NCBI GenBank assembly: GCA_963713955.1
Contig: OY970216.1
Span: 442,252 to 506,251 of the forward strand
DNA from: an uncultured bacterium
Lineage (GTDB): Bacteria; Patescibacteriota; Minisyncoccia; UBA6257; GWB1-50-10
Length of the DNA: 64,000 nucleotides
Direction of reading: 5' to 3'
The notes beneath the pieces are model-generated. The model was not told where the DNA came from. It searched no databases and saw nothing but the letters and a program-made list of their open reading frames with translations. Below are positions 12,044 to 59,850 of the stretch, in pieces. Numbering within the stretch: the stretch's first letter is position 1; every line of letters begins with the position of its first letter. The position numbers and the translations under genes are program-made.

Positions 12044-12121
12044 GGGCTCGGTAAGGCGAAAAAGTGGGTAAGACTTGGCCTAGCGGCCCGGAGCGCACAC
12101 TTTTTCGGCTTGCCGGGCCCC
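12044..12121. repeat. structured palindromic repeat, family F1 copy C (reverse orientation), between convergent genes
   Basis: ~78 bp; 10-bp stem CGAAAAAGTG/CACTTTTTCG plus inner hairpin; 3 copies in window. Confidence 0.7.
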
Positions 12122-12129
12122 GCAGTGTC

Positions 12130-13883: not shown

Positions 13884-13910
13884 TTAGCGACAAAAGGTCA
13901 ACATTGCTAA
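13884..13910 (+). promoter_or_regulatory. degenerate CIRCE-like inverted repeat (TTAGCGACA-N9-CATTGCTAA) and promoter (-35 TTGACA 13853-13858) upstream of groES
   Basis: TTAGC...GCTAA arms with 9-nt spacer; position relative to groES. Confidence 0.35.
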
Positions 13911-13922
13911 TATAAATAAAAA

Positions 13923-14213: not shown

Positions 14214-14221
14214 CTACGAAT

Positions 14222-15871: not shown

Positions 15872-15897
15872 CTCTCTAGAAGCTTAATATCTAAGCA

Positions 15898-17571
15898 ATG
15901 GAAACTTGGCAAGAATACGAGCCAGATCTTACTCCCCATCATTGGACTTCTGAAGACAGGTTTTATCTAGAGCCCTTTGCCACGAACCCTGACGGCTTCA
16001 TTTCGGTCTTGAGGAACCTTCCTCCCGAGATCGCTGGTGCTCTCTGCTCAAGAGCCAGCCGCGCTTCGGGTTCTCTCCTCGAGGTATTTCTGAAGGAGTA
16101 CGTCTATCCCATCGTTAAGGGGGAGGATAAAGAACTTGCTGCTGAGCTCGAGAATACGGTGAAATTCCTGCGCGAACACGGCTTCAAGAAAATCTTAAAC
16201 AACCAACGCGCCCAGTCTTTTTACGCCAAATGGCTTTCGCAGTACGGCGATGATTCCATCGCCCAGATGACCGGAACCCACCTGATATTCTGGGGCATAT
16301 CCCAGGTGGCGATGAAATTTATAGAAGACCAGCGTATCGGCCTTGAACCAATCGAGAAATCCACGCGGTACGTCAATTTCGGGAGCAAAACCGACGGTCA
16401 TTATTTGTATTACGTTCCGAGGCCGGATTTGGAAAAAATCGGTCTCCTCGGCGAATACCAAAAAACTCTCGATAATCTCTTTGACACGTACGTCGAGCTT
16501 TTGCCGCCGCTCGTCGGATGGCTCAAAGAGAACTTCGACGAGAAGGATTCCATATTGGAGAAAAAGGCTTTCGATACGCTGCGGGGACTTTTGCCGATGG
16601 CGACCCTCGGCCAAGTCGCGTTCCGGGGGAACGCCCAGGCGTTCGAGTACCTCGTGAATCGGACCGCAAAGCACCACTTGGGCGAACTCCGGTGGATTTC
16701 GCGGGCGGTCAAGAAGGAGTTGGACGAGGAAATTCCATCGCTCCTCCTCAGGGTCAACGATGAGCCGGCGGCCGCCTATCAATCCTACTTGAGCGGAAGA
16801 CACGGTGCTGTGAGAAAATTCCTGAAGGAAAACGGTATCGACGTGCGAAAATCGCTCTCGGGGGAGCCTACCGTGAAGCTCGTTGAGTGGGACGACGCCG
16901 CCGAGTCGAAGATCATGTCGGGGATCGTTTTTGAGCATACGCACGGTGAGTGGAATAATATCCTGGAATCGGTGGAGAAGATGTCGGAAGAGAAAAGGAG
17001 AGAATTGATCGCGACTTACCTCAAAGACAGGAGTCAAAGATGGCATAAGGTAGGCCGGGCTTTCGAGAATTCGTACTTGAGGTTCGAGATAACCATGAAC
17101 ATCGGCGCGTACCGCGATTTGCATCGGCACCGGATGATGACGCAGGAACGGCAGCTCTTCTCGACCCATCATGGGTACGATGTTCCTCAAGAGATCATTG
17201 AATCTGACTTGAAGGACAGATTCACGTCGGCTCTCGATAAAGCGGGCGAGTTTTTCCTTAAGATTGAGTCTTTCGACGCCGGCCTCGCCCAATATGTCGT
17301 CCCTCTAGCTTACCGGATGAGATTTTTCCAATGGCAAAATTTCCGGCAGCTTTTTTGGGAGTCGGAACTTCGAACGATATCCCAGGGACACCCCGACTAC
17401 CGGCACATTGAGCAGGAGAAATACCGCTTGGTGAAAGAGAAATTCCCGCTTATATCAAGCTTCATGCTGGTTGACATGAACGAGTACGACGTCGCGAGGA
17501 GGGGAACAGAGGAAGAGATAAAAAAGAAAGAGGAGTTCTTGGTGGAAAAATTGAAGAAGAAAGTGCTATAG
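15898..17571 (+). CDS. thyX: tandem-domain ThyX-family protein (flavin-dependent thymidylate synthase-like); N-terminal domain degenerate
   Basis: C-terminal half carries RHRMMTQERQ...STHHGY and RFFQWQNFRQLFW motifs resembling the ThyX RHR...S.RY and YTRFFW motifs; N-terminal half retains STRY but lacks RHR. Confidence 0.55.
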   Translation: METWQEYEPDLTPHHWTSEDRFYLEPFATNPDGFISVLRNLPPEIAGALCSRASRASGSLLEVFLKEYVYPIVKGEDKELAAELENTVKFLREHGFKKILNNQRAQSFYAKWLSQYGDDSIAQMTGTHLIFWGISQVAMKFIEDQRIGLEPIEKSTRYVNFGSKTDGHYLYYVPRPDLEKIGLLGEYQKTLDNLFDTYVELLPPLVGWLKENFDEKDSILEKKAFDTLRGLLPMATLGQVAFRGNAQAFEYLVNRTAKHHLGELRWISRAVKKELDEEIPSLLLRVNDEPAAAYQSYLSGRHGAVRKFLKENGIDVRKSLSGEPTVKLVEWDDAAESKIMSGIVFEHTHGEWNNILESVEKMSEEKRRELIATYLKDRSQRWHKVGRAFENSYLRFEITMNIGAYRDLHRHRMMTQERQLFSTHHGYDVPQEIIESDLKDRFTSALDKAGEFFLKIESFDAGLAQYVVPLAYRMRFFQWQNFRQLFWESELRTISQGHPDYRHIEQEKYRLVKEKFPLISSFMLVDMNEYDVARRGTEEEIKKKEEFLVEKLKKKVL

Positions 17572-17588
17572 TATATCAATAAGAGGGT

Positions 17589-18035
17589 ATGAAAGTGCGC
17601 GATGTTATGATAGCGCCAGTCATAACGGTATCGCCGTGGACGACATATGAAGATACCGCGCTTTTGCTTTGTGCCCGCAACATCAGCGGCGTGCCGGTCG
17701 TGAACGACGAGGGCGAACTCGTAGGTATCGTATCGGAGAAAGATCTTTTCCGTGCCATGTATCCTCGCTACGAGGAATACATTTTGGAGCCGCATGCATT
17801 CTGCGATCGGGAACTTCAGGAGGAAGAAATCAAGACTGTCCGAAAGCAGCCGGTCGAAAAATATATGTCGAAGCAAGTGGTGACGATCGACGCCGATGCC
17901 CCCATCCTCCGGGCCGGCGGCCTTATGCTCGCGCGAGGCCTTCACCGGCTGCCCGTCATTGACAAAGGGAAACTTGTCGGCATCGTCACGCGGGAAGACA
18001 TTTACGGTACCATTCTCAAAAAACACTTGGGTTGA
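17589..18035 (+). CDS. CBS domain pair protein
   Basis: two CBS repeats (GVPVVNDEGELVGIVSEKD / RLPVIDKGKLVGIVTRED). Confidence 0.8.
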   Translation: MKVRDVMIAPVITVSPWTTYEDTALLLCARNISGVPVVNDEGELVGIVSEKDLFRAMYPRYEEYILEPHAFCDRELQEEEIKTVRKQPVEKYMSKQVVTIDADAPILRAGGLMLARGLHRLPVIDKGKLVGIVTREDIYGTILKKHLG

Positions 18036-18112
18036 CACGGAATGTATCAGTGAGGTAAATTAAACTCTGGTCCTTAAGAACCTTTTTGCAGACATTGTGA
18101 TGGATAGGTTTC

Positions 18113-19237
18113 TTTAGACAGTCACTCGACAAGTTTTCTCGTCGTTTTTTCATTCTCTCACACTGCTATCTTCTCTGCAAACACCGAAGGCGGCATCCTG
18201 AGAGCGGAGTGGATTCTTGTATGGTTGTACTCCCAAAGCGTTCGGTAGATCTCCGCCACAAGTTCCCCTAAGGATCTGAACCGATTAGGATCGCCAAGAT
18301 CCATTTTGAATTTTCCGTAGAAAGATTCTTGGTATCCGTTCTCCCACGGCGATCCGGGGCGTGAGCGGGAGATGGTGATGCCGTAGCGCTCAAGCATAGC
18401 GATGAACGCCTTCGCTTCGTATTCCCTCCCGTTGTCAGAATGGAAGATCACGGGTCGCGGGCAATGGAAGAGCGCGTTCGCCAGAGTTTGGATGGTGAGC
18501 GTCGATCCCTTCCGGGTCGCCACATGAACGCCCATCAGTTGCCTCGTAAACAGGTTAAGGATCGTTGATACGTACAGCTTCTTCCCGTGAAAGACAAGCT
18601 CCGTGAAATCCGTCGCCCAGACATGGTTCGCATATGATGGCATAATGCCGAGGAGGAGGTTCGGGAAGTGCCGTTCCGCCTTGGATTTCCTGTATTTTCT
18701 CCCATGCCTGCGGTAGGGCTTGATGCCGTAAATCCGCATGACCCGTTGCGCTCTCGGTCTGCCGATGCCGAGCGCAATCGCCAGTCGGCGTGAGCCGTAT
18801 GAGGGATGCTCGTGAAGCACCTCCTCCGTCCGGACCTTTAATGCCCAATCCTTCTTGTCCTGCGTTGCGACGTAATAGAGCGATGAGCGCGAGACACCCA
18901 TGGCGCGAGCCAGGGCGGATACGTTCCTTTCCCTGCTCAATTCTTTTTTTGGGTCTGGGACAGCTTGATCGTGAGTTCACCGATCACTTCGAAGAGTTCC
19001 TGATTCTGTTTCTTTAGGCGATTGATTTCTCCCCAGGAGGGAGCGCTCGTGGCACCGGCGCCGAGCCATCCATACACGGTTGTCTCGTGGACGCCTGCAT
19101 CTTTTGCCGCTTCTGCGACGGAGACGCCTTCTTCCTTCACGCGGCGGACAATCTCCGCTTTTACCTCTTTCGCTACCCGATATCCTTTTTTGTTAGCCAT
19201 GACACAATGGTAATTTGTTCCGACCTTTGTGTCTAAA
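18113..19237 (-). mobile_element. IS3-family insertion sequence (copy 1): orfA 18937..19200 (HTH) and orfB 18158..18940 (DDE integrase) on minus strand; ends approximate
   Basis: orfA/orfB overlap typical of -1 frameshift; DDE core HSDNGREY...PWENGYQESF; terminal TTTAGACA(G/C) at both ends. Confidence 0.8.
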
Positions 19238-19265
19238 TTTTCCTATCCGGAACATACTAAGAGTA

Positions 19266-19296
19266 GAGGTCGCAGGTTCAAGCCCTGCTGTCTGCA
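19266..19296 (+). pseudogene. tRNA-like 3' half (T-arm GCAGG-TTCAAGC-CCTGC plus acceptor TGTCTGC-A) immediately downstream of IS copy 1
   Basis: complementary acceptor 5' strand GCAGACA lies at 18088-18094 just upstream of the IS, which suggests an IS-split tRNA-like gene. Confidence 0.4.
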
Positions 19297-19505
19297 CGAC
19301 TCACGGGTAAAGGCAAGCCCTATCTCCTGAGGATTAAAATATACTCGCATCCCCATCCGGGATAAAAGGCGAGGTGCCCGGAGGATAGAGCTTAATATCC
19401 CGTGTGGCATGGTATCTTCCATGCCTTTTCCCATGCGTACGAAGGTGGCCTGTTCCTAATATAAGCCACCTTCTCTTCCTATTTGCTTTGTTGTATAATC
19501 GACAC

Positions 19506-20060
19506 ATGAATTTAGTGACAATATTAATACTCATTCTCGTTTTGGTCGTTCTGTGGCTCATTTTCGCCTTCAATGGCCTTGTGCGAAGGAGAAACCGCGT
19601 CCAAGAAGCGTGGTCCGACATAGAGGTCCAATTGAAAAGGAGGTACGATTTAATACCCAATCTCGTTGAAACGGTGAAGGGCTATGCGACACACGAAAAG
19701 ACAGTCTTGGAAAACGTGACAAACGCTCGGGTTGCGGCCATGGGCGCCGTCGACCCGAAGGCGAAACTCGCGGCGAATGACCAGCTTTCAAATACTTTGA
19801 AATCGCTTTTCGCGGTCGCCGAAAATTACCCGAATCTCAAGGCGAACGAGAATTTCTTGAAATTGCAGGATGAATTGACCGACACCGAAGACAAGATCCA
19901 GGCAGCGAGGAGATTCTACAATGCGAACGTCAGGGATTTCAACACGGCAATCGAAGTGTTCCCGACGAACCTGATCGCGGGCGCGTTCCATTTCACGAGG
20001 CGGGAACTTTTCGACGTGGATAATCCCGCGGAAAAGGAACCGGTCAAAGTTCAATTTTAG
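19506..20060 (+). CDS. lemA: LemA family protein (ORF track start 19404; probable start ATG 19506)
   Basis: N-terminal TM helix plus LemA motif; -10 TATAAT at 19493; canonical lemA-htpX pair. Confidence 0.8.
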   Translation: MNLVTILILILVLVVLWLIFAFNGLVRRRNRVQEAWSDIEVQLKRRYDLIPNLVETVKGYATHEKTVLENVTNARVAAMGAVDPKAKLAANDQLSNTLKSLFAVAENYPNLKANENFLKLQDELTDTEDKIQAARRFYNANVRDFNTAIEVFPTNLIAGAFHFTRRELFDVDNPAEKEPVKVQF

Positions 20061-20062
20061 GA

Positions 20063-20971
20063 ATGAAGACACTTTATACTGAAGCGTCATCCAATGTCAG
20101 GAAGACGTGGATTCTCCTCACGGGAGTTTTTGTTTTGATCATCGCTCTCGGGTGGATTTTCAGCCAGGTTTACGATTCGCCCGGCATTTTGGTCTTCGCC
20201 GTCATTTTGAGCATTGTTTTGAATGTTGTGAGCTACTGGTACTCCGACAAAATCGTTCTTGCAACGAGCGGCGCCAAGCAAATCCAAAAGCAGGAGAACC
20301 CGGAACTTTGGAGGATCGTCGAGAATCTCTCGATCGCCGCGGGCCTTCCGATGCCCAAGCTCTACGTCGTGCCGGTCGCGGCCCCCAACGCGTTCGCGAC
20401 GGGGCGCGATAAGGAACATGCGTCGGTCGCCGTGACGCAGGGTCTCCTTCAAATTATGAACAAGGACGAACTCGAAGGAGTTCTCGCCCACGAGCTGTCG
20501 CATGTGGGAAACAGGGATATGCTGGTTTCGACCGTCGTCGTCGTTCTCGTGGGGGTGATATCGGTCCTAGCTGATTGGTTTCTCCGGATGAGTTTCTGGG
20601 GCGGCAGGAGAAACGACCGGGAAGGAGAAGGAAATCTCTTGTTTTTTCTTGGTATCGTCGGAGCCATTCTCGCGCCGATTGCCGCAATGCTGATCCAACT
20701 TGCCATATCGAGGAAACGGGAGTCCTTGGCGGATGTTTCCGGAGCGCTTCTCACGCGCTATCCGCAAGGTTTGGCAAGCGCGCTGGAAAAGATAGAAAAA
20801 TATCCCTTCCCCACGGCAGGCGCGAGTTCGGCGACCGCCCACCTTTATTTCGCAAATCCTTTCAAAGCCGACGCGGGGAACTCCAAAAAGACTCCGTTTT
20901 TTGTTAAACTCTTTATGACCCATCCGCCCATCGAAGAGCGCATTAAGGTCTTGAGGCAGATGTCACTATGA
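20063..20971 (+). CDS. htpX: membrane zinc metalloprotease HtpX (M48)
   Basis: HELSHV zinc motif, TM helices. Confidence 0.9.
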   Translation: MKTLYTEASSNVRKTWILLTGVFVLIIALGWIFSQVYDSPGILVFAVILSIVLNVVSYWYSDKIVLATSGAKQIQKQENPELWRIVENLSIAAGLPMPKLYVVPVAAPNAFATGRDKEHASVAVTQGLLQIMNKDELEGVLAHELSHVGNRDMLVSTVVVVLVGVISVLADWFLRMSFWGGRRNDREGEGNLLFFLGIVGAILAPIAAMLIQLAISRKRESLADVSGALLTRYPQGLASALEKIEKYPFPTAGASSATAHLYFANPFKADAGNSKKTPFFVKLFMTHPPIEERIKVLRQMSL

Positions 20972-21660
20972 AATATAAATTCGGAAAAACGATCGTCATT
21001 GCCCTCGGAGGTTCGATTGTCTATCCCAAGGACATTGACATTTCTTTTCTCAAGAATTTCAAGAAGTTCATCGGGAAAGAAATCAAGAAGGGGAGAAAGT
21101 TCGTGATTGTCGTCGGGGGAGGACAACTCTGCCGACCCTTTCAAAGGGCGGCCGATGAAATCTCTTCTGTTACCGACGAAGACAAGGATTGGATCGGTAT
21201 CCATTCAACGCGCTTGAACGCCCAGCTTCTCCGGACCATTTTCAAGAAAGCGGCGGATCCCGTAGTTTTTGATAAGAGAAAGAAAATAAAGGTTCTGAAA
21301 CATCCCGTCACAGTGGCTTCCGGCTGGCGGCCGGGATGGTCGACTGACTTCGTTGCTGCCGCCATAGCGAAAGACCTGGGCACCGGAGAATTCGTGGTCG
21401 CCGGCAAGCCGGCGTTCGTTTATGATTCCGATCCGTCGCTCCACCGGCGGGCAAAACCGTTCCGTGAAATTGGTTGGAAGGATTATCGGCGGCTCATCCC
21501 CGAAAGATGGGTTCCCGGTTCCCACGCGCCCGTGGATCCCGTGGCCGCCAGGCTTTCACAGGGGGCCGACGTGAAAGCGATAGTGATAAACGGCCGTGAC
21601 ATCCGTAATTTCGGAAATCTCCTGGATGATAGGGAATTTGAAGGAACCGTGATAGGCTGA
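20968..21660 (+). CDS. amino-acid kinase family protein (archaeal-type UMP kinase / isopentenyl-phosphate kinase-like)
   Basis: IVIALGGS and VVGGG motifs. Confidence 0.5.
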   Translation: MKYKFGKTIVIALGGSIVYPKDIDISFLKNFKKFIGKEIKKGRKFVIVVGGGQLCRPFQRAADEISSVTDEDKDWIGIHSTRLNAQLLRTIFKKAADPVVFDKRKKIKVLKHPVTVASGWRPGWSTDFVAAAIAKDLGTGEFVVAGKPAFVYDSDPSLHRRAKPFREIGWKDYRRLIPERWVPGSHAPVDPVAARLSQGADVKAIVINGRDIRNFGNLLDDREFEGTVIG

Positions 21661-21687
21661 TCCCGGATTTTACGCGGCTCTGTCTCT

Positions 21688-22077
21688 ATGAAAAGAAAAG
21701 CGGATGAATACATAAAATTTACCCTTGTCCTCCTCGTTATCATATTGGCGGCGCTCCTCGTCGCTTTTATCAAAGAATATTCCGATTTGAGAAAAGCGGA
21801 AGTTCTGGGTCCCCGGGAGGCTTTCCTCGGCGCCGTAAGCCGCCATGGCCCCTTCACGGTGAATGATCTCGGTATAATTCAAGGGTGGATGACGTTCGAC
21901 TACGTGAACAAGCTTTTCGGCTTGCCGTCCAACTACCTCAAATCCAATCTCAACATCTCGGATCCCCATTATCCCAGGCTTCTTATCTACCGATACGCCG
22001 AGAAGAATAAGATGGGTCTGCAATCTTTTCTCAATGAGGTGAGAAACTCAATTCGCAGTTATCTCGCAAACAAATAG
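21688..22077 (+). CDS. hypothetical membrane-anchored protein
   Basis: N-terminal TM helix, no recognised domain. Confidence 0.45.
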   Translation: MKRKADEYIKFTLVLLVIILAALLVAFIKEYSDLRKAEVLGPREAFLGAVSRHGPFTVNDLGIIQGWMTFDYVNKLFGLPSNYLKSNLNISDPHYPRLLIYRYAEKNKMGLQSFLNEVRNSIRSYLANK

Positions 22078-22080
22078 ATA

Positions 22081-22680
22081 ATGGGATCAATACTGACTTT
22101 TCTTCTCTCTTATCTCCTTCTCTATAAGTACGCGGCACTTTTCTTGATAGTCTTCTCGTCGGCCATGATACTGCCCTTGCCGGTGACGGAGGTCATGCTC
22201 GCCGTGGGAGCGTTCGTCGGCCAAGGCTATTTCGACTTTATAATCTCCCTTACCGTCGCCCAAGTTGCCAACGTTTTGGGCGATCTCGTGGACTACGCGA
22301 TAGCCAGGAAATACGGTTATGGGGTTATCCATAAATTGAGACTAAATAGATCCCGTTTTTTTACAAAGTTGGAACAGGAAATGCAGGTGCACGCGAGATC
22401 GACCATTTTCGTGACTCGTTTCGCCGGAGGATTGGGACCCGTTGTCAATCTTCTCTCCGGAGCCATAGGGATATCTCTCCGAAAGTTCCTTGTTTACGAT
22501 TTTGCCGGTAACCTCGTTTACTACATCGCGGCGCTTTTGATCGGATACTGGGCCGGAAGTTATTGGGAGAACTTCTCGGAGCTCATGAGTCTCGTCGTGG
22601 GAATCTTAGTCGTCGTCGTCGTGATGATTGCTCTTTGGAGGATTTACAAAAGAATAAGATTGAACCACTCCAAACATTAG
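22081..22680 (+). CDS. DedA/SNARE-associated family membrane protein
   Basis: DedA-like topology and motifs. Confidence 0.75.
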   Translation: MGSILTFLLSYLLLYKYAALFLIVFSSAMILPLPVTEVMLAVGAFVGQGYFDFIISLTVAQVANVLGDLVDYAIARKYGYGVIHKLRLNRSRFFTKLEQEMQVHARSTIFVTRFAGGLGPVVNLLSGAIGISLRKFLVYDFAGNLVYYIAALLIGYWAGSYWENFSELMSLVVGILVVVVVMIALWRIYKRIRLNHSKH

Positions 22681-22683
22681 GAG

Positions 22684-22756
22684 ACCCGGCAAGCCGAAAA
22701 AGTGTGCGCTCCGGGGCGCTAGCCCAAGTCTTACCCACTTTTTCGCCTCACCGGGC
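22684..22756. repeat. structured palindromic repeat, family F1 copy A, between convergent genes
   Basis: cccggcaagccGAAAAAGTGtgcgctccgGGGCgctaGCCCaagtcttaccCACTTTTTCgcctcaccggg. Confidence 0.7.
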
Positions 22757-22770
22757 CTCCTGTGGTAGAT

Positions 22771-23583
22771 TTAATCCTTTGAAAGCGTCAAGAGAAGCGG
22801 GTCGTGGTCCGAGAGCGGGGGATCCAGGTATTCCGGTTCATATTTCACGACCCTCAAGCCCATTTTATCGATGTTTCTGACGAGCATGTAATCGTATCTT
22901 TTGGGGAAACGTATCCTGTTTCGCCAATTGTCGACGTACGCGTTGCCGGGCCGGTAGGTCGGTTGCATTCGCTCGCCGTCCTCGAGTTTTATCGGGCTCG
23001 AGAATCCCGTCGTTTTGAAAAGCTCGGTGAATTCGTCTTCTCTCATGAGATAATCCTCGTTGAAATCTCCGGCGATTATCGTCGGCAGTTGGTCGCCGTT
23101 CGTTTTCATGATCATTTTCGTCGTCTGGATGAGACGGATCTTCCGGTCGAAGAAAACGGTCTCATGATGCATGTGAGTGTTCACTATTTTGAGATTACCG
23201 AGAGGAGTCTTAACCGTCACTTCGAGAAATCCTTTTCGTCCGAACGCCTCCGTTATCGTCGAATTCAAGAAGCGACCATAAGGGACAAAGCGGCTGCTTA
23301 CGACGGGGAATTTGGAAAAAACGACCAGTCCGCCGGTTACGTCGAACAATTTGATGAAAAGGATGCGCCGGTGGTCTTTCGCGTCGCCGGCGATTTGATA
23401 TTTGTCCTTGAGTTTGTCGCGCAGAAAGGCACGGTTATAGATATCAAAAGATTCCTGAAGGCAGACGATGTCGGCATCCGAGTTCCGCAGATACTCTGCG
23501 ATGCCAGCTACCCTCTTTTTTCTGTCCTTGACGAACCAGAACGGCAAATCCCAAATATTGAAGGTGATAATCTTTATTTGCAC
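22771..23583 (-). CDS. endonuclease/exonuclease/phosphatase (EEP) family protein
   Basis: EEP fold motifs (ITFNIW...CLQE...D...HD). Confidence 0.75.
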   Translation of the reverse strand: MQIKIITFNIWDLPFWFVKDRKKRVAGIAEYLRNSDADIVCLQESFDIYNRAFLRDKLKDKYQIAGDAKDHRRILFIKLFDVTGGLVVFSKFPVVSSRFVPYGRFLNSTITEAFGRKGFLEVTVKTPLGNLKIVNTHMHHETVFFDRKIRLIQTTKMIMKTNGDQLPTIIAGDFNEDYLMREDEFTELFKTTGFSSPIKLEDGERMQPTYRPGNAYVDNWRNRIRFPKRYDYMLVRNIDKMGLRVVKYEPEYLDPPLSDHDPLLLTLSKD

Positions 23584-23654
23584 GTTACTCTATGGTAGAG
23601 AATACGCGCTGTTGAGTCAATCCGTTCCCGGTGATAGAATGGGTGTGCTCTCTT

Positions 23655-23739
23655 GGAGGGGTCGCATAGTGGCCTAGTGCGCGCGCTTGGAGAGCGCGTA
23701 TACCGCAAGGTATCGTGGGTTCGAATCCCACTCCCTCCG
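23655..23739 (+). tRNA. tRNA-Ser (anticodon GGA), class II
   Basis: manual fold; anticodon loop TTGGAGA; variable arm TATACCGCAAGGTATC resembles that of a bacterial tRNA-Ser(GGA); promoter TTGAGT..TAGAAT upstream. Confidence 0.8.
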
Positions 23740-23751
23740 CAAATCAAATAT

Positions 23752-24156
23752 TTAATTACTTTTAAGGTATCTTAGAAAAATATTCTTGATCTCTGTTCGA
23801 AAAGGAATGTTATCCAACACCGTGAGTGGTATCCATTCGAGATGATAAATGTTGTCGGGGGATTGCCGCTTTACCTCGGGACCGCCGAGCCTTGGCTCTC
23901 CCTTGAACGAATCAGCAATATAAAATGACTCGAGGGAGTCGTTGATTTTCAGAGAATCGATCTTCTTGCCTAAAATAATATCCAGTCCCGTTTCCTCCTT
24001 GATTTCGCGCACCGCGGTTTGCCCTTCGGTTTCTCCTGATTTCATTCCTCCGCCCGGCACGGCGTAGTATTCTTTCCCGTCCTTGAAGCGGTAGAGGAGA
24101 AGTATCCTGCCATGGTCGATGATGAATACGGCAACGCGGTGCCTCAGATGAGTCAT
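23752..24156 (-). CDS. NUDIX hydrolase
   Basis: Nudix box GGGMKSGETEGQTAVREIKEETGL. Confidence 0.8.
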   Translation of the reverse strand: MTHLRHRVAVFIIDHGRILLLYRFKDGKEYYAVPGGGMKSGETEGQTAVREIKEETGLDIILGKKIDSLKINDSLESFYIADSFKGEPRLGGPEVKRQSPDNIYHLEWIPLTVLDNIPFRTEIKNIFLRYLKSN

Positions 24157-24816
24157 TTATTGAGTCTCTTGTTCAATGATCGGACGCATTTCTTGAAAAG
24201 TATCGGCGAAATGAATCAGATTAAGATCTCGAAGGTCATGGATAAGAAAATCTTCTTTTAGGGGATTGTTTTTTAGCCAATCCAATAACCCATCCCAATA
24301 TTTTTTATCCGTACAGATGATCGGGACTGTGTCTACGATGTCTGTCTGCATGAGGACGGCATATTCAAAAAGCTCATTAAGAGTACCGTATCCACCGGGG
24401 TAAAAAATAAGAGCTTCGCTCTTTATTGCCATGAGAAAGCGCCGCACGAAAAGAAAGTGAAACGAAAGATCGTGGGTGAAGATAGGATCTTCTACTCTCT
24501 CTCCCTTGAGAAGAAGAGCTCTCAAAGCGATCGAGGGGGCTCCTACTTGCATCCCACCGGAATTTGCGGCGTGCATGATACCTGGGCCCCCGCCACTCAA
24601 TATCGCATAATTGTTTTTCCCGAATTCCGCTCCGAGATTCTTCGCTTGTTGGTAATAGATGCTTTCAGGGGTAATGCGATGAGATCCGAAAAAAGTGACT
24701 ATGGGTTTGTCGACACTATTGAGTAAGGCAAGACCATTGTTAATTTCCTCTCGGACTTTTTCGACGGTCCAATCGACATTTCCGAAGTATTCTTTATTCT
24801 TATGCAGTCTACTCAT
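24157..24816 (-). CDS. LOG family protein (cytokinin riboside 5'-monophosphate phosphoribohydrolase / TIGR00730-like)
   Basis: GGGPGIM and PGGYGTLNEL motifs. Confidence 0.8.
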   Translation of the reverse strand: MSRLHKNKEYFGNVDWTVEKVREEINNGLALLNSVDKPIVTFFGSHRITPESIYYQQAKNLGAEFGKNNYAILSGGGPGIMHAANSGGMQVGAPSIALRALLLKGERVEDPIFTHDLSFHFLFVRRFLMAIKSEALIFYPGGYGTLNELFEYAVLMQTDIVDTVPIICTDKKYWDGLLDWLKNNPLKEDFLIHDLRDLNLIHFADTFQEMRPIIEQETQ

Positions 24817-24843
24817 TTTATAACAAGTCTAGCATGAGTTCTG

Positions 24844-25422
24844 TTATTTGAGTTTTATCTCAATTCGCACGTCAATGCCCTCATCGCCAATCCTTTCGGT
24901 GCTGTTCAGCCACACTTTCTCCGGCACCGCTTTATATATGCGTCTTGGCCGCGAATCAAGGAAACGGCTCACGTCTCTCAAAGTTTTCTTCTTCCTCGTG
25001 TAGAGGAGATAAATCGCTCTCACCATCTCTTTAAGGTCGGTGACTACCGATGCCCGCGCTTGAACGTATACGCCTTCTCCCGTCCCTTCGGGCACGGTTG
25101 AATCATAGATCACGAGGAAAACGTCCGGCTTTTCGGTGATGTTCTTGCTGTGCTGGGCCGCGCGGGGCGAAACCCAATAAAAGGTGTAATTATTCTTATC
25201 GTAGGCGGAGTACACGGGGCTATTCCACGGCTTGCCTTCCGGAGTGACGGTCGCAATCGTGATATAGATTATTTTCTCTATGATCTCTTTCGCGCGTTTT
25301 ACCAATTCCTCCTGCATGCGATAATTGTATCTCTTTAAACTTATCCTATCCAGGGAGCAATCGATCACTGTTTGATCTTTGACAGCGTGAAGCGTCCGGT
25401 GTATTTTATTTTCAATCGGCAT
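24844..25422 (-). CDS. pyridoxamine 5'-phosphate oxidase-like FMN-binding split-barrel protein
   Basis: general-stress-protein-26-type fold motifs; probable ATG start at 25422. Confidence 0.55.
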   Translation of the reverse strand: MPIENKIHRTLHAVKDQTVIDCSLDRISLKRYNYRMQEELVKRAKEIIEKIIYITIATVTPEGKPWNSPVYSAYDKNNYTFYWVSPRAAQHSKNITEKPDVFLVIYDSTVPEGTGEGVYVQARASVVTDLKEMVRAIYLLYTRKKKTLRDVSRFLDSRPRRIYKAVPEKVWLNSTERIGDEGIDVRIEIKLK

Positions 25423-25427
25423 TCTCA

Positions 25428-25727
25428 ATGAAAAAATATTCCATCGGAAAATCGAGGATACACGGTAAGGGAATCATTCTCTCTAAAGATGTTAAGAAAA
25501 ACGAGGCCATTTTTGTTTTCAAGGGAAAGGATATTTATTATTCTGGGGGGATCTGGTGGAAAGAACCGGACTCGCTCCAAGTAGGGTATATCCACTGGAT
25601 AAAGCCACTGGCCGGCTCTCCCGGAGCGTATCTGAACCATTCGTGTAATCCGACTGCCGGCATCCGCGGCAACAGGATTATCGTCGCGATGCAGCCTCTC
25701 AAGAAGTGTAAAGACCCCCAAAGTTAA
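25428..25727 (+). pseudogene. SET-domain protein (lysine methyltransferase fold), C-terminally truncated at the IS copy 2 boundary
   Basis: GKGIILSKDVKKNEAIFVFKG N-SET region and NHSCNPT (NHSCxPN) motif; post-SET ELxxDY region absent; ORF runs into IS end. Confidence 0.6.
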
Positions 25728-26824
25728 GACACTTTTTCGACAAGTTTCTGGTAGCGATTCGAGAACAGTGCAGGCGGCATCCTGAGGGCGGAGTGGATTC
25801 TCCGGTGGTTGTAGTCCCAGACCAGGCGATGGATCTCGTAGACCAGCTCTCCCAGCGATTTGAACCTCTCCGGATCGCCCAGATCCACCTTGAACTGGGA
25901 GTAGAAGGACTCCTGGTAGCCGTTCTCCCATGGCGATGACTTCCTCGATCTCGATATCCTGACGCCGAGGTTCAAAAGAGCTCCGGTGAAGATCCTTGAG
26001 CCATACTCCCTTCCGTTGTCCGAGTGGAAGATGTTGGGTCTCGGATGATGTTCCGCCGCGGAGAAGAGTGCCTGGAGGACCAGAGGCACCGAGTGGGTAT
26101 TCATCACGGCCCAGCCCACGATCTCCCTCGCAAACAAATCCATCACGGTGGCGAGATACAGGAACTTCCCTTGGTACGGGATGTACGTGAAGTCCGCCAC
26201 CCAGATATCGTTCAATCCTTTGGGGAAGTTCTTCTGAAGGAGATTGGGATACAGGATACTCGAGAAGCCCGTTTTCCTTGGCCTTCTGCCCCTTCTCCGA
26301 TATGCCTTCATCCCGAAGAGCCTCATCACCCGTTGGGCTCTTTTTTTGTTGATCTTGAGCTCCAAAGCCACTCTTCTGAAGCCGTATGAAGGATGGTCTC
26401 TCAAGACTGATATGATCCTTTCCTTGAGCGACCAATCCTTGGGCGATTGTTTCGAGACATAGTAGAGGGAGGCGCGGGAGAGGCCGAGTTCACGGGCAAG
26501 TTCCCACTTCGTCTTCTTCTGCTTTTTGATCAACGCTTTTTTTGAGTGCGTGAGGAGGCCAGGGTGAGCTCGCCCACGAGGGCGAGGAGCTCTTCGTTCT
26601 GGCGCTTGAGGCGGACGAGTTCACCGATCGTGGGGGTGCCTTTCACGCCCCTTCCCAGCCAGTTGTATATGGTGGCGGGATTCAGACCGTGTTCCTTGGC
26701 GGCCTGGACGACCGGGATCCCTTCCTCCTTGATTCTCTTCAATATCTGCTCCTTCACCTCGGGAGCAGTGCGATATGTTTTCTTCATGACACAAGGGTAT
26801 ATTGACTTCGACCTTTGTGTCTAA
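25724..26824 (-). mobile_element. IS3-family insertion sequence (copy 2): orfA 26530..26787, orfB 25724..26533; ~50% aa identity to copy 1, so a distinct IS of the same family
   Basis: DDE motifs, orfA/orfB overlap; ends TTAAGACAC ... GTGTCTAA homologous to copy 1 ends. Confidence 0.8.
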
Positions 26825-26845
26825 TATATGGGGGTCAGGCCACTC

Positions 26846-26903
26846 CTTCGCTAAAGCTTCGGACGGGCACAGCGATACTGCGCTGATGCTGGCTGCCGAG
26901 AGT
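26846..26903. repeat. 58-bp direct repeat (family F4 copy a): ctccttcgctaaagcttcggacgggcacagcgatactgcgctga..tggctgccgag, a candidate att site
   Basis: 54/58 identity to 29722-29779, which overlaps the 3' end of tRNA-Gln. Confidence 0.65.
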
Positions 26904-27063
26904 CTATTCTCACCGGTATAGATTTATCCGCTTAAACTCTCACTTTTTATTTTATCACTCCGGTTCGAATTCCGGGCGGGTCGTCAAAAAAACAGAATCA
27001 CGTCTCAAGATGAATGCCTACGCGTTTTCAGTAAGGATATCTATTTTTTGATATAATTAACTT

Positions 27064-27354
27064 ATGAATAAAAAGGTATTATTAATTGTTTTAATAGTCG
27101 TGGTTTTGGCCCTAGCAGGGGGCGGTTACTACTATTGGAAAATAAAAATGCAAAAAGCCCCTGAGGCTTCAAAGCCCGCGGCGCAACAAGCAACGGAGGA
27201 TATTCAAAAAACAGTAACTGGTGTTGCAGCTGACGTTGGCAATAGCGTTTCGCCAAACGTAACAACGCCGATTGTCACTCCGACTCCACAAGACGCCAAT
27301 CCCTATAACAAAACCAATCCTTTTTCAAATTTAAAAACCAACCCTTTCCAATAA
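27064..27354 (+). CDS. small membrane-anchored protein with C-terminal TNPF repeats
   Basis: N-terminal TM helix; NPYNKTNPFSNLKTNPFQ tail; -10 TATAAT at 27050. Confidence 0.5.
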   Translation: MNKKVLLIVLIVVVLALAGGGYYYWKIKMQKAPEASKPAAQQATEDIQKTVTGVAADVGNSVSPNVTTPIVTPTPQDANPYNKTNPFSNLKTNPFQ

Positions 27355-27363
27355 ATAGAAACG

Positions 27364-29583
27364 ATGAATAAAAAAACTTTAAGCGTTCTCGTTATTATTT
27401 CCGGAATTTTAGTTTCTGGCGCAATAATCGGTTTTGCTAAGGCCCAAATAACAACGAATCAGTCGGTGCAAACTCAGCCACCGCAACCGCAGGAACAACA
27501 AACGCCAGAGAACATCCAATATCCCATAAAGGAATTGGGCAATTGCCAAAGCAAAGAAGATTGCAAGGTTTTTTGCGATGATTCCAAAAATTCCGATGCC
27601 TGTCTGGCTTTTGCCCAGCAAAATAATTTGATGAGTTCTGATGAAATAGTCACCGCCAAAAAATTTATGGATAACGGCATGGTCGGCCCGGGCGGCTGCA
27701 AGGGACAAACCGCATGCGATCAATACTGCGGCAACTCCGATCATTTGGAAGAATGCATCACTTTCGCCCAAAAAAATGGGATGATGTCAGCCCAGCAACT
27801 GCAAGATTCCCAAAAGGTTTTGGCGGCTATCAAGAACGGACTAAAACCTCCTGCTTGCGCCGGCCCTCAACAATGCAACGCATATTGCAGTAGCCCCGAC
27901 CATATGGAGGAGTGTATGACCTTTTCTTTGGCGGCTGGAATTGTACCGGACAATCAGAAAGCACAAATGCAAAAGACCTTGGATGCCATAAAACAAGGTG
28001 TAAAACCACCGGCTTGCCAACCAACCCCGCCGCCCGGTCAAATACAATCCAGCCAGTCCGGACAGAGTCTGCCGGCATGCGACACGTATTGCAGTAGCCC
28101 CGACCATATGGAGGAGTGTATGACCTTTTCTTTGGCGGCTGGTATGGTGTCGGACAATCAGAAGGCACAGGTACAGAAAACTTTGGATGCCATAAAGCAG
28201 GGCATCAAACCACCGGCTTGCCAACCTAACCCACCTGGCCAGTCCGGCAAACCCGGACAGCCTGGACAATCCAGTCAAACCAATCAATCCAGTCAATCTG
28301 GACAGGGACTGCAACCATGTGACCAATATTGCGCAGACCCCACTCACGTTGAAGAATGCGTGAAATTTTCCGTGGCAATGGGAAACATGACCGAACAGCA
28401 GGCGCAAACTGCCATAAAAAACGGCAACAAGGGTCCCGGCGGATGCATCGGTAAAGATGCCTGTGACGCTTTCTGTAATAATCCCGACAACCAAGAAACT
28501 TGTTTCAATTTTGCCAAAGACAACGGAATGGTCCCGCAAGACCAACTTCAACAAATGCAAGCTAGCCAGCAAAAGATGAAAGATTCTTTCAGTCAGATAC
28601 CTGCGGAGGTTCTAACTTGCATAACGAACTCGGCGGGTGCCGATGTAGTTGAGGAGATGAAAAGCGGTTCGTTTATACCCAGCCAAAGCGGTGAAGCCAT
28701 AAACCAGTGTTTTCGGAATTATGCTCCGCAGAACCAAGTACCGAATCAAAATCAGCCTGGACAGCCAGGGCAAGGCGGCCCGAATAATATGCCCGGAGAT
28801 TTAAGGGATTGCCTTCAATCTCAAGTTGGCGAAGATGGTCTGGCGAAAATTCAATCAGGAAATGTTGATGACCCCGTTTTAATGGAAAAAGCAAAAACTT
28901 GCTTTGATAAATACGGCCAGCCTGGTCAATCTAATCAACCGATGAATCCAGGACAGCCTAACCAGTCGGGACAATCCGGTTCAATGCAACCAATGATGCC
29001 CGGTGTTCAGTTTGCTTCGGGAACCGGTCCGAATGTGCCGTCATCTCCCCAGCAGGGAGTCATGTCGTCCGGAACCCAATTTGCTCCCCGTACAGGACCG
29101 AGTATGCCGCCGCCAAATTTTCAAAATAATTTTCCCGGCGGACCGGCAAGCGGCACAACTATTGTGGGACCAGGCGGTTGCAAGACTCCCCAAGAATGCG
29201 CGGCGTTCTGCGCTAGCAATCCTCAAATCTGCAACAATTTCCAGCCGCCATCTTCCGGGCAGCAGGGGCAAATGCAGCCGATGATGCCTCCGCAAGGAAT
29301 GAAGTCTGGCACAGAGTTCGCTTCCGGAACCAGTCCGAATATGCCACCGCAGGAAGGAATGCCCCTGAATCCGACAACGCCGCTCAATGAGACGAAATCT
29401 CCTCCCGGAGGAACGCAGCCTCAGTCCGGAACGCAAGAGATGATACCGCAAGGCGGAATGCAGCCATTCGTGTCTCCGCCTCCTCCGCCTGCGCCCGGAA
29501 CTACATCGACCACATCTGGCTTGCAGAACCAAGAATTCCTCGGGGCATTGATTGAATTGTTCCGGCCCGTATTCGGCCTCTAA
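27364..29583 (+). CDS. secreted cysteine-rich repeat protein: signal peptide, seven CX5CX3CX8C modules, Q/P-rich linkers, proline-rich C-terminus
   Basis: Sec signal MNKKTLSVLVIISGILVSGAIIGFAKAQ; modules such as GPGGCKGQTACDQYCGNSDHLEEC...FAQKNGMM; repeats 3 and 4 near-identical at DNA level. Confidence 0.75.
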   Translation: MNKKTLSVLVIISGILVSGAIIGFAKAQITTNQSVQTQPPQPQEQQTPENIQYPIKELGNCQSKEDCKVFCDDSKNSDACLAFAQQNNLMSSDEIVTAKKFMDNGMVGPGGCKGQTACDQYCGNSDHLEECITFAQKNGMMSAQQLQDSQKVLAAIKNGLKPPACAGPQQCNAYCSSPDHMEECMTFSLAAGIVPDNQKAQMQKTLDAIKQGVKPPACQPTPPPGQIQSSQSGQSLPACDTYCSSPDHMEECMTFSLAAGMVSDNQKAQVQKTLDAIKQGIKPPACQPNPPGQSGKPGQPGQSSQTNQSSQSGQGLQPCDQYCADPTHVEECVKFSVAMGNMTEQQAQTAIKNGNKGPGGCIGKDACDAFCNNPDNQETCFNFAKDNGMVPQDQLQQMQASQQKMKDSFSQIPAEVLTCITNSAGADVVEEMKSGSFIPSQSGEAINQCFRNYAPQNQVPNQNQPGQPGQGGPNNMPGDLRDCLQSQVGEDGLAKIQSGNVDDPVLMEKAKTCFDKYGQPGQSNQPMNPGQPNQSGQSGSMQPMMPGVQFASGTGPNVPSSPQQGVMSSGTQFAPRTGPSMPPPNFQNNFPGGPASGTTIVGPGGCKTPQECAAFCASNPQICNNFQPPSSGQQGQMQPMMPPQGMKSGTEFASGTSPNMPPQEGMPLNPTTPLNETKSPPGGTQPQSGTQEMIPQGGMQPFVSPPPPPAPGTTSTTSGLQNQEFLGALIELFRPVFGL

Positions 29584-29721
29584 ATATTTCTACTCGCGTT
29601 AGTTCGAATCCAGTCGGGTGAAAAGAGAACACCAATCCGAATTCTAAAAAGGTCACGGGTCTCGGATTAGAACTGATATTCAAAAAAGATAGAATTTAAG
29701 GCTCTCCGGTCTCGCTCCCTC

Positions 29722-29779
29722 CTTCGCTAAAGCTTCGGACGGGCACAGCGATACTGCGCTGACTGTGGCTGCCGGGCTT
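29722..29779. repeat. 58-bp direct repeat (family F4 copy b) overlapping the last 14 nt of tRNA-Gln
   Basis: see 26846-26903. Confidence 0.65.
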
Positions 29780-29839
29780 GGATTCGAACCAAGATACTGG
29801 GCTCCAAAGGCCCATGTCCTACCGTTAGACGACCCGGCA
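29766..29839 (-). tRNA. tRNA-Gln (anticodon TTG), CCA encoded
   Basis: manual fold: acceptor TGCCGGG/CCCGGCA, anticodon loop CTTTGGA, T-loop TTCGAAT. Confidence 0.8.
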
Positions 29840-29884
29840 ATAAAAACTTTTCATAATGGTATAATGGAGTAAACTAAATATCAA

Positions 29885-30571
29885 ATGAATCAGATTCTAC
29901 TTTCAATCTTTCTAAGTCCAGCTTTGAATTACATTCCTGAGATATTTTTCGGGCTGCTGATTTTATTCGCCGGAATACGGTATTACGCGAGGCTCAGGAG
30001 AGGGGACCTGGAAGGAATCAAGACAAGCCGATTCTTCGGGAAGCTCATTCTCGTCGCGATCGGCTTCAAAACCCTCTACGCGGCGCTTCTGACGTGGGGA
30101 CAATACGTTATCTGGAAATCGAGTACATTGGCATCGGCGCTCCTTTCGGAAGCGGTCGTGAAAGACAAAGCTGGCATTGCGGGAGCGTTTCCCAAACTTT
30201 TCGACGAGAAGGGCGGTTATTTCCTTTACTACTCCTTGAGCCACTTCTGGCTCGAATTCGGAATAACGCTCGTTCTCGGCCTGGCTTTCTATCTTCTCCT
30301 TATGTCGTTTCAAAAGAAGAACCCGCGGTTTCTCACGTTGGCTGATGCAAGGCTCGGACTTCTGGGCGGAATCACAGCTGGCTGGCCTGGCTTCGTCGTG
30401 TACCTTTTCGGCTTCGCCCTGATCTTTCTCCTCTATGGTCTTGTGAGGAAATTGGTACTGAAAGAAGAATACACCCCTATTACAGAGCCGCTTTTCATCG
30501 CGGCCTTCCTCGCCGCCGCCTTCGGCTTCTGGATTATAAACTTCTTGGGACTGTCAGCTCTAAGGATTTAG
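29885..30571 (+). CDS. polytopic membrane protein, possible A24 prepilin-peptidase-like
   Basis: LADARLGLLGGITAGW resembles the GDFKLLAALGAW catalytic-Asp region; weak. Confidence 0.35.
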   Translation: MNQILLSIFLSPALNYIPEIFFGLLILFAGIRYYARLRRGDLEGIKTSRFFGKLILVAIGFKTLYAALLTWGQYVIWKSSTLASALLSEAVVKDKAGIAGAFPKLFDEKGGYFLYYSLSHFWLEFGITLVLGLAFYLLLMSFQKKNPRFLTLADARLGLLGGITAGWPGFVVYLFGFALIFLLYGLVRKLVLKEEYTPITEPLFIAAFLAAAFGFWIINFLGLSALRI

Positions 30572-30584
30572 AAATCGCACTAAA

Positions 30585-30665
30585 GCTGACTCGGCAAGCC
30601 GAAAAAGTGTGCGCTCCGAGCCGCTAGGCCAAGTCTTACCCACTTTTTCGTCTCACCGAGTCAGC
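30585..30665. repeat. structured palindromic repeat, family F1 copy B, between convergent genes (overlaps dnaX stop)
   Basis: outer stem gctgactcgg/ccgagtcagc, inner stem AGCC-gcta-GGC covaries with copies A and C. Confidence 0.7.
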
Positions 30666-31786
30666 TATTTGCTATTAATTCCCTGGAGCCCTTCCACAAT
30701 TGCTACCTCGAGAGGAATCCTCGGGAACTGGCTGTAGCGCATTTCGCCGTAGGCATTGATGAGCACCTTGATAAGCCCCACGTGAGCTTGCTTGAAGTTT
30801 TTGGACTGGGCGACGAGTTTCTGAAGATGTTCCGGCATCATTTCTTTTTTGAAAACATTTTCCATGGGAGGGCTCGCCCGGAGGACGAGGATTCTCCGGA
30901 GGTATTGGATCACGTCCCGCAAAAACTGGCTCAAGCTGAACCCGCCGTCGGCTATCTCTGAGACGAACTTCAAAGCGCTCGCTTCGTCTCCCTTTACCAA
31001 AAACTCCGTAAACTTATCTATTTTGTCGAAATTAATTTTCCCGACGGCTTTCTCAATTTCCTCAACTTCTATGCTCTTGTCGCCGAGCGAAATCATCTGG
31101 TCGAGAAGCGACTCGGAATCCCGGAAACTGCCTTCCGCGTAGTCAGCGATGAGATCCAGGGCTTCATCGGAGATTTTCACTTTCTCCTCCTTCGTGATCT
31201 TCGTGAGCTTTTTCACGATTTCCTCGCGGGGGACGAGCTTGAAATAAAATTTCTGGGCGCGGGAAGCGATGGTCGCGGGGACTTTCTCTATTTCGGTCGT
31301 CGCGAGAATGATGATGATGTACGCCGGCGGCTCCTCCAGGGTTTTCAAAAGCGCGTTCCAGGCGTCCTTCGTCAACATGTGCGCTTCGTCGATGATGTAA
31401 ACTTTGAATCTCGCGGAAGCCGGAGCGGTCCGTATGGATTCCTTGAGATTCCGTATCTCGTCCACGCCGCGGTTCGACGCGCCGTCGATTTCGAGAACGT
31501 CGAGCGTTTTCCCCTCGTCTATCCCGAGACATGTGGGGCAGGCGTTGCACGGCTCTCCTTTTTTCTTGAATTCCGGGTCCTTCGCCCGCTTCTCGCAGTT
31601 CGCGATTTTCGCGATGAGCCTCGCCGACGTGGTCTTCCCCGTGCCGCGGGGGCCGGAGAAGATATAGGCGTGCGAAAGCCGGTCCTGCCGGGCTTCTTCC
31701 TTCAGGATTTTCACGATAGTCTCCTGGCCCAAGAGATCCTCGAATGTAGCTGGCCGGTATTTTCTATATATGGCGAGGTGGGGCAT
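30665..31786 (-). CDS. dnaX: DNA polymerase III subunit gamma/tau (short form)
   Basis: Walker A GPRGTGKTT, zinc module CNACPTC, clamp-loader motifs. Confidence 0.9.
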   Translation of the reverse strand: MPHLAIYRKYRPATFEDLLGQETIVKILKEEARQDRLSHAYIFSGPRGTGKTTSARLIAKIANCEKRAKDPEFKKKGEPCNACPTCLGIDEGKTLDVLEIDGASNRGVDEIRNLKESIRTAPASARFKVYIIDEAHMLTKDAWNALLKTLEEPPAYIIIILATTEIEKVPATIASRAQKFYFKLVPREEIVKKLTKITKEEKVKISDEALDLIADYAEGSFRDSESLLDQMISLGDKSIEVEEIEKAVGKINFDKIDKFTEFLVKGDEASALKFVSEIADGGFSLSQFLRDVIQYLRRILVLRASPPMENVFKKEMMPEHLQKLVAQSKNFKQAHVGLIKVLINAYGEMRYSQFPRIPLEVAIVEGLQGINSK

Positions 31787-50670: not shown

Positions 50671-50740
50671 CAGGTACTCCTTCCTCAGGCAGTCTCCGGG
50701 GCGACGCCCAAGTCTTAGCCTTCGGAAGGAGTGCCTGCCT
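50671..50740. repeat. structured repeat family F2 copy 1 (caggtactccttcctcaggcagtctccggggcgacgcccaagtcttagccttcggaaggagtgcctg)
   Basis: 3 copies (50671, 51547, 59745 rc); shares core ctccgGGGC...GCCCaagtctta with F1. Confidence 0.65.
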
Positions 50741-59744: not shown

Positions 59745-59812
59745 GGCAGGTACTCCTTCCGAAGGCTAAGACTTGGGCGTCGCCCCGGAGACTGCCTGAG
59801 GAAGGAGTACCT
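59745..59812. repeat. repeat family F2 copy 3 (reverse orientation) upstream of rplC promoter
   Basis: near-identical to 50671-50740. Confidence 0.65.
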
Positions 59813-59850
59813 GACGAGTAAGAAGAAATCATCTCGCCGACGCCCCTTTG

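Follow-up and report, generated by a model that had tools for sequence, protein, structure and literature searches.

A widespread hairpin element of Patescibacteria with a fixed tip and a free stem

What kind of element is the structured repeat that closes the gap between two convergent genes in this patescibacterial genome? In the window, by which we mean the whole stretch of 64,000 nucleotides that was analysed, a sequence-only reading had noticed three such repeats at convergent gene ends, had taken compensatory changes in their stems as the mark of a selected secondary structure and had named a bidirectional terminator, a REP-like element and a small RNA as candidates. Patescibacteria make up a large share of bacterial diversity, and their transcription signals, regulatory RNAs and repeats are, to our knowledge, almost entirely uncharacterised. 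We find that the three repeats are true copies of a widespread hairpin element of Patescibacteria (the candidate phyla radiation). The searchable literature yielded no description of such an element, which is apparently undescribed to date, and it is unusual among interspersed palindromes in its fixed tip and free stem, its strand-specific wobble bias and its in-frame copies in essential genes.

A relaxed motif search combined with a filter-free model scan enumerates five copies in the window (Table 1), of which A, B and C belong to type 1 and D and E to type 2. The first three were found where they had been placed before, and the outer arms and inner hairpins quoted for them proved correct; copies D and E are absent from the earlier list. 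Throughout, R is the strand that reads GGGUAAGAC...GGAGCGC and F is its complement. Searching the window for the cores CGAAAAAGTGTGCGCTCCG and CAAGTCTTACCCACTTTTTCG gives exactly three matches to each, against 0.01 expected from shuffles, and all six strands of copies A to C fold better than shuffled sequences (z -2.9 to -7.0). The folding energy of these copies is -48 to -54 kcal/mol on R and -37 to -41 kcal/mol on F; R folds better because several positions that are G.U on R are C.A on F. The inner hairpins read GGGC/GCCC at 22.7 kb, GGCC/GGCC at 12 kb and AGCC/GGCC at 30.6 kb, the last of which becomes GGCC/GGCU on the opposite strand, closed by a G.U wobble.

Table 1. Positions of the element copies in the window, and of the subfamily with DnaA-box-like flanks at other loci
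Feature	Position	Strand	Remarks
Copy A, full hairpin	12044..12120	+ (R sense on +)	104 bits
Copy A, stem arms	12057-12066 and 12098-12107
Copy A, apical module	12067-12097
Copy B, full hairpin (feature under study)	22679..22761	- (R sense on -)	101 bits
Copy B, apical module	22705..22735	-	GGUAAGA / CUUGGGC-UAGC-GCCCCGG / AGCGCA
Copy B, 10-bp A/U-rich stem, 5' arm	22695..22704		CGAAAAAGTG; source of the A-tract
Copy B, 10-bp stem, 3' arm	22736..22745		CACTTTTTCG; T5/U5 tract right after the core helix, either strand
Copy C, full hairpin	30584..30666	- (R sense on -)	98 bits
Copy C, stem arms	30600-30609 and 30641-30650
Copy C, apical module	30610-30640
Copy D, second subtype	59747..59813	+	core GGCUAAGACUUGGGC-GUC-GCCCCGGAGACUGCC
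Copy E, second subtype	50671..50737	-	near-identical to copy D
DnaA-box subfamily	L093 2138-2216; L101 3865-3943; L111 1305-1383; L099 1830-1908; L173 3553-3631

The ORFs around copies A to C bear out that each lies between convergent gene ends. Copy A fills the gap between a Nudix gene and a RelA/SpoT gene, copy B that between DedA and an endonuclease/exonuclease/phosphatase (EEP) gene, and copy C that between a hypothetical protein and DnaX, with stop codons 0-13 nt from the hairpins in every case except Nudix (188 nt). The RelA/SpoT stop (12130-12132) is 9 nt from the hairpin of copy A, and read in the relA sense this hairpin is followed by TTGTTTTATTTATTTGTTT. At copy B, the DedA stop (22678-22680) overlaps with the hairpin base and the EEP stop (22771-22773) is 10 nt away; the DnaX stop (30665-30667) lies within the base of the copy C hairpin, and the + strand ORF upstream of this copy ends at 30571. 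Copy D has a LamG/pilin-like gene on one side and the promoter region of rplC-rplD on the other, and copy E begins 10 nt after the rpoD stop (50658-50660). The genes are bacterial, an archaeal origin being rejected on the evidence of ParB, RelA and DnaX; the closest named homologues of RelA are those of Candidatus Jorgensenbacteria and Paceibacterota, which places the window in a Patescibacteria genome.

Some features of these neighbourhoods deserve mention in their own right. A shadow ORF of 585 aa on the + strand (12064-13821) lies opposite relA (12130-13833, - strand) and is longer than the real gene, and naive longest-ORF calling assigns the wrong strand there. Near copy D, a strong promoter-like site (59851-59879; TTGACA, 17 nt, TAATAT) is followed by a hairpin with a T-run of about 9 (59912-59939) ahead of the rplC start at 59950; the stretch 59851-59939 may represent a leader or attenuator that serves the ribosomal protein operon. 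An A+T-rich hairpin (59443-59541; 31% G+C), weakly scored by the model on both strands, directly follows the LamG/pilin-like gene, which ends at 59432, and may be that gene's own terminator.

How far does the element reach beyond this genome? A first scan with the 10-bp stem as query, over one genome per species, returned 14 further copies that share the apical module, all from MAGs assigned to Patescibacteria/Minisyncoccia or bearing no label beyond 'bacterium'. These 14 relatives served to build a covariance model, which recovered diverged copies in which the 10-bp stem is replaced and the tip is kept, among them a fourth copy in the window, and a metagenome scan with the tip alone gave at least 120 loci, on contigs whose names indicate groundwater, peat and sediment. 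The viral contigs scanned for the core gave 0 matches. Against Rfam 15 at the gathering threshold only 4 tRNAs reach the threshold and no family matches the element, and cmscan at E up to 10 adds only spurious miRNA-hairpin matches. The same 10-bp stem, CGAAAAAGTG/CACTTTTTCG, also occurs exactly in two other abundant repeat families of unrelated MAGs (contigs L003-L090; JAHYYS01 HRGM_Genome_1129 and CAWJXH01 Chloroflexia MFD01299), whose centres are GCTTGTCAATT...AATTGACAAGC and ATGATTTTGCGGGC...GCCCGCAAAATCAT and which have conserved flanks of their own.

What all copies have in common is not the stem but the tip. The conserved unit is an asymmetric apical module of ~33 nt, GGGUAAGA-CUUGGSC-NAGC-GSCCCGG-AGCGCC, set on a hairpin that measures 80-100 nt per copy. 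It comprises helix 1 (GGU/GCC, with a closing U.G wobble), an internal loop AAGA/AGC and an apical helix CU(U)GGSC/GSCC(C)GG of 6-7 bp. Type 1 is capped by an NAGC loop; type 2 has a GUC loop, the 3' strand AGACACCC and, below, a GAA/UGA loop (tandem G.A), which in copy D flanks the core together with a 14-bp stem. The basal stem of 15-25 bp takes almost any sequence and is complementary within each copy: in an ungapped register 72-97% of pairs form over 23 consecutive positions, compared with 40-50% when the 3' arms of other copies are used. The 10-bp stem that had been put forward as common to all is indeed shared by copies A to C but is a feature of their subfamily, not the heart of the element, and the outer arms of these copies are diverged forms of the subfamily-wide arms GYGAGNCYCGG...CCGRGNCTCRC. 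By hand comparison the internal loop fits none of the K-turn, loop E and hammerhead motifs.

The case for a selected secondary structure, made earlier from three copies, is now strongly supported by 109-128, and the additional copies do covary. In alignment A3 (109 copies) 90.2% of cells are paired, against 73.0% in shuffles, and the covariation score is 0.416, against 0.110 in shuffles and 0.075-0.118 with slid partners. Of 128 copies, 83 have C-G and 41 have G-C at the apical pair that had been singled out before, a free position in the search pattern; of the others, 2 show a wobble and 2 a mismatch. The core U.G is present in 105 of 109 copies, at a position outside the constraint of the search pattern. 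That pattern does, however, account for part of the tip's invariance among the metagenome copies. In the genome set, which was selected on the stem, GGUAAGA and GGAGCGC are nearly invariant and the apical helix and loop vary with compensation; the positions of the apical module of copy B are invariant or covarying across the 109-128 copies. Copies A to C are nearly identical within the window, so that these three could not by themselves prove selection. The independent loci, more than 120 in number, come from many samples and assemblers and have stems that are fully diverged and yet complementary; as, in addition, so few core matches are expected from shuffles, we consider chance, the neutral drift of a recent duplication and an assembly artefact to be ruled out.

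In which surroundings do the copies lie? We assembled 123 non-redundant copies for this purpose, the simple ORF calls being the weak point of the set. An ORF of at least 80 aa ends -8 to +34 nt from the hairpin in 72 of the 123. Such an end is present on F in 54 copies and on R in 31, of which 13 have one on both strands, and 51 copies have none; at random positions of these loci the background is ~10% and ~8% per strand. Most copies are within ~10 nt of a stop codon, in either orientation, and the commonest layout is a gene, its stop, ~7 nt, the hairpin, ~80 nt and the next gene on the same strand. The convergent setting of copies A to C does not characterise the family, as only 13 of 123 copies lie between convergent gene ends. 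Recurrent neighbours are housekeeping genes (among them LepA/EF-G, GyrB, UvrB, DnaX, ribosomal protein L9, ComEC and a VirD4-like ATPase), and when the neighbouring ORFs were clustered no transposase, reverse transcriptase or nuclease stood out.

About 15% of the copies (19) are found within long ORFs, with at least 60 codons on each side, and their hosts include MnmA (mnmA), RarA (rarA), ValRS (valS), Tgt (tgt) and UvrC (uvrC); the five window copies all lie outside such in-frame coding locations. In the translations of these genes conserved protein motifs run on in the same frame on both sides of the element. MnmA carries it at two different insertion sites, and in RarA it immediately precedes the Walker B motif, the tip facing one way in some copies and the other way in others. 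Alignment of MnmA to PDB 2DER and of RarA to PDB 3PVS shows the element as an extra in-frame loop.

Contigs of relatives, retrieved via RelA homologues, show that the element is dynamic among closely related lineages, in which copies are gained and lost. In two relatives with RelA proteins 83% and 80% identical, EEP and DedA overlap by 4 nt and the site of copy B is empty. In a relative whose RelA is 85% identical, CTTACCGAGCTC lies 9 nt after relA and matches one arm of copy A; only this 12-nt arm is present and the downstream sequence is similar, so we regard it as the remnant of a largely deleted copy A. The contigs L213-L215 (42 kb) contain no core motif, against five copies in the 64 kb of the window. 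At L212 4936-5105, between peptidase M48 and LemA, the basal and 10-bp stems are intact and ~100 nt of other sequence replace the apical module; the two genes adjoin with a 5-nt gap in L213. Between loci L093 and L101 the tip is flipped relative to related arms. The same rarA and mnmA insertion points recur across diverged species, which indicates that some copies are old. The idea that the element entered terminator hairpins already in place, which would account for the variable arms, was rejected: the empty site of copy B, where the genes overlap, has no hairpin, and the outer arms of copies A to C derive from those of their subfamily.

Two further observations concern the loci themselves. 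A contig of another assembly with an identical DnaX ends inside copy C (L211 4115-4166), and the repeat appears to break short-read assemblies. One subfamily (Table 1, last row) is flanked on both sides, at ~30-45 nt, by direct repeats of the DnaA-box-like GTTATCCACA, the same sequence at every locus, and has extended imperfect inverted repeats as well. A DnaA-box-like 8-mer occurs within 300 nt of 13 of the 123 copies, against a background of 0.06 per kb. A location at oriC found no support, since the neighbours are TyrRS/ClpP, TrmB and VKOR/UvrB, not dnaA.

Does the element end transcripts? In copies A to C the core helix is closed by GUG/CAC and passes directly into UUUUU on both strands, perfect A5 and U5 tracts bracketing it. 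As the arms are palindromic, A-rich on the 5' side and T-rich on the 3' side, either strand would give a hairpin and then U4-6, and on the strength of these tracts copies A to C are best read as putative two-way Rho-independent terminators between convergent genes. Family-wide, at stem positions 4-8 by the core, A:T (54-73) outweighs T:A (2-16). A and T tracts of at least 4 accompany 37 of 64 gene-end copies (58%) compared with 3 of 19 in-gene copies (16%; Fisher p = 0.0015), a distribution that fits selection favouring termination where genes end and opposing it within them. The bidirectional terminator of the sequence-only reading thus finds support for the window subfamily, from its A5-hairpin-U5 anatomy and its gene-end context. 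A simple terminator scan did not call the sites of copies A to C, because the hairpin is long and interrupted and its loop and stem are beyond the limits of the scanner. Within the extended lower stem the U-tract pairs with the A-tract, which may weaken termination. A strong T-run outside the full hairpin, on either strand, is present in only 30 of 123 copies. At 11500-31400 of the window, 25 terminator-like sites were found, against 25.9 expected from shuffles, which gives no sign of an enrichment of canonical intrinsic terminators in this genome.

The two strands of the element are not equivalent. Basal-stem G.U pairs number 231 on R and 74 on F (~3:1), with 78 copies having more wobbles on R and 20 more on F. 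The bias appears in every gene-context class, in all three subfamilies and on both GC-skew strands; an artefact of one subfamily or of one replication strand does not account for it. In the orthologous pair L094/L206, a copy antisense to mnmA, 5 of 5 stem differences (counted by eye) are GC<->GU on R. The bias suggests that something recognises R when it is single-stranded and folded, regardless of the adjacent genes. The reader could be a DNA transaction confined to one strand (mobilisation or the loading of a factor, for instance) or an RNA-binding factor that would act on R-sense read-through or antisense transcripts.

Could the element then be a strand-specific single-stranded DNA element, whose GGGTAAGAC... 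strand folds when unwound and is bound by a protein (a HUH/RAYT-like enzyme copying the element, or a helicase-loading or priming factor), with effects on transcription being incidental? The wobble bias follows the orientation of the tip and not gene direction or GC-skew strand, the L094/L206 differences all spare pairing on R, the R strand has no promoter, and both the subfamily with DnaA-box-like flanks and the core flipped between L093 and L101 would suit such an element. However, no HUH/RAYT-like or other candidate gene was seen among the neighbours, G.T is tolerated less well in DNA hairpins than G.U in RNA, and the better-folding strand is more often the C-rich one (52 of 79 loci, p = 0.007). 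The C-rich strand is less exposed as single-stranded DNA, and this asymmetry mildly disfavours exposure of R on the lagging-strand template. On balance we think this explanation unlikely. An alternative is a host-selected, cis-acting RNA module that is not mobile and whose copies persist because they are useful. Its tip would bind an RNA-binding protein or an RNase that sets mRNA 3' ends or stability, or that keeps antisense transcription out of the 3' end of the gene. The conserved core U.G wobbles, the stems still paired at the old insertion points shared in rarA and mnmA, and the recurrence after the conserved genes LepA/EF-G, GyrB, UvrB and DnaX agree with such a role. Yet a sequence-specific RNA site is expected to face one way, and the element does not, the adjacent gene being on the opposite strand in 54 cases and on the same strand in 31; moreover, copies within coding sequences in both orientations, together with empty sites, look like insertion. 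This too we judge rather improbable.

That each copy is a small-RNA gene in its own right, equipped with a promoter and a terminator, is very unlikely, even though a stable hairpin of 80-100 nt with a conserved tip superficially resembles 4.5S/SRP RNA. No peak of a TANNNT signal is seen at any fixed offset upstream on either strand of 118 copies, and a promoter scan called no promoter-like site next to copies A to C; from both tests we infer that the copies are transcribed only within other transcripts. The bases of the hairpins overlap stop codons, the copies have mixed orientations to genes, some lie in-frame inside coding sequences, and five occur in 64 kb, so the small RNA was set aside. 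The REP-like element is the best fit of the three original candidates, the repeat being multi-copy, interspersed, palindromic, variably present among relatives and in-frame in some genes.

We therefore propose that the element is a REP/RPE-like interspersed palindrome, that its window subfamily serves as a bidirectional terminator and that its tip is a putative recognition site for a trans-acting factor, a reading to which we give a probability of roughly 0.55. According to this model, the basal stem drifts in sequence and is kept complementary. In the window subfamily, in which A5 on the 5' side and U5 on the 3' side bracket the core helix, a transcript of either strand would present a hairpin and then a U-tract, and copies A to C would also provide the convergent genes with hairpins at their 3' ends. 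No part of the element is more conserved than the tip, including U.G wobbles that are one change away from G-C, and termination requires no particular tip sequence. The invariant tip, presumably dispensable for termination, would most likely be the recognition site of the trans-acting factor, whose identity may be the element-copying machinery or an RNA- or ssDNA-binding protein. The model has its difficulties. A plain bidirectional terminator does not predict the excess of G.U on R, basal stems that remain paired in old, vertically inherited copies are not expected of decaying selfish DNA, and no transposase or other mobility gene was seen near any copy, nor do target-site duplications flank copies A to C.

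What would a new class of tip imply? We speculate, as a tentative and somewhat doubtful extension of the palindrome model, that the tip is a nucleic-acid module of a new kind, recognised in trans on just one of the strands and adopted by the host. Its marks would be the GGU/GCC helix with its U.G pair and the UAAGA/AGC internal loop, of which the UAAGA presumably fits the U-N-N-R-A pattern of a T-loop. If this were true, the element could act directionally, for example by halting antisense transcription where genes end or by loading a factor onto folded DNA, and it would define a Patescibacteria-specific RNA- or ssDNA-protein system of a new class, beyond selfish DNA. More broadly, the element is a candidate for how the compact genomes of Patescibacteria end transcription, and it provides a second, independent case of a palindromic repeat in-frame in essential genes of a reduced symbiont lineage. 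Its conserved tip is a concrete bait for a partner protein. In practical terms, the element creates spurious ORFs and adds 15-30 residues to conserved proteins.

How does the element compare with known systems? REP/BIME and REPIN sequences occur in Enterobacteria and Pseudomonas, where RAYT transposases mobilise them; REP elements can attenuate transcription and shield the mRNA upstream of them, and a single DNA strand is the target of their mobilisation. The likeness lies in short interspersed palindromes at gene 3' ends and between convergent genes, with hairpins in the transcripts. A REP sequence, however, has 20-40 nt, a conserved stem and a GTAG head, whereas the element has 80-100 nt, a conserved tip and a free stem (alignments A2 and A3), and also occurs in-frame inside genes; no RAYT (IS200-like Y1 transposase) gene was found among the ORFs within 2 kb of the 123 copies. 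MITEs (Correia, ERIC, BOX) are likewise small, non-coding, multi-copy hairpins able to affect neighbouring transcripts, but copies A to C lack conserved terminal inverted repeats and target-site duplications: no direct repeats flank them, and no parent insertion sequence was found. In an integron attC the outer R''/R' boxes (GTTRRRY) are conserved, the centre is variable and the sites form cassette arrays; the element reverses this plan, with a conserved centre and variable arms, and the window copies are 8-30 kb apart among housekeeping genes.

The SRP (4.5S) RNA offers a further comparison, in that domain IV of the E. coli molecule presumably shares the GGU/GCC helix with its U.G wobble, next to a loop with the 3' strand AGC(A). 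The element differs from it in lacking a GNRA tetraloop, in being multi-copy and in lying inside genes, and cmscan gave no match to the SRP family even at E up to 10; we take the resemblance as a lead and not as a relationship. With bidirectional Rho-independent terminators the element shares an A-tract, a G+C-rich hairpin and a U-tract on both strands, between convergent genes. Its hairpin is 2-3 times longer, though, with a conserved asymmetric internal loop and the U-tract buried in the stem, and one tip sequence is common to at least 120 sites in many species. The Rickettsia palindromic elements (RPE), reportedly described by Ogata et al. in 2000, resemble it in being palindromic repeats of ~100 bp in a reduced, host-dependent lineage, both intergenic and in-frame in conserved protein genes as extra surface loops. 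RPE are conserved along their whole length, whereas in the present element conservation is limited to the tip and the stem covaries; the host phylum is unrelated and the sequence probably so, and the A-/U-tract layout and the position right after stops are features of the element and not of RPE. Although in architecture and sequence apparently a member of none of these groups, the element would function like REP/BIME and bidirectional terminators, and in genomes it behaves like the Rickettsia palindromic elements.
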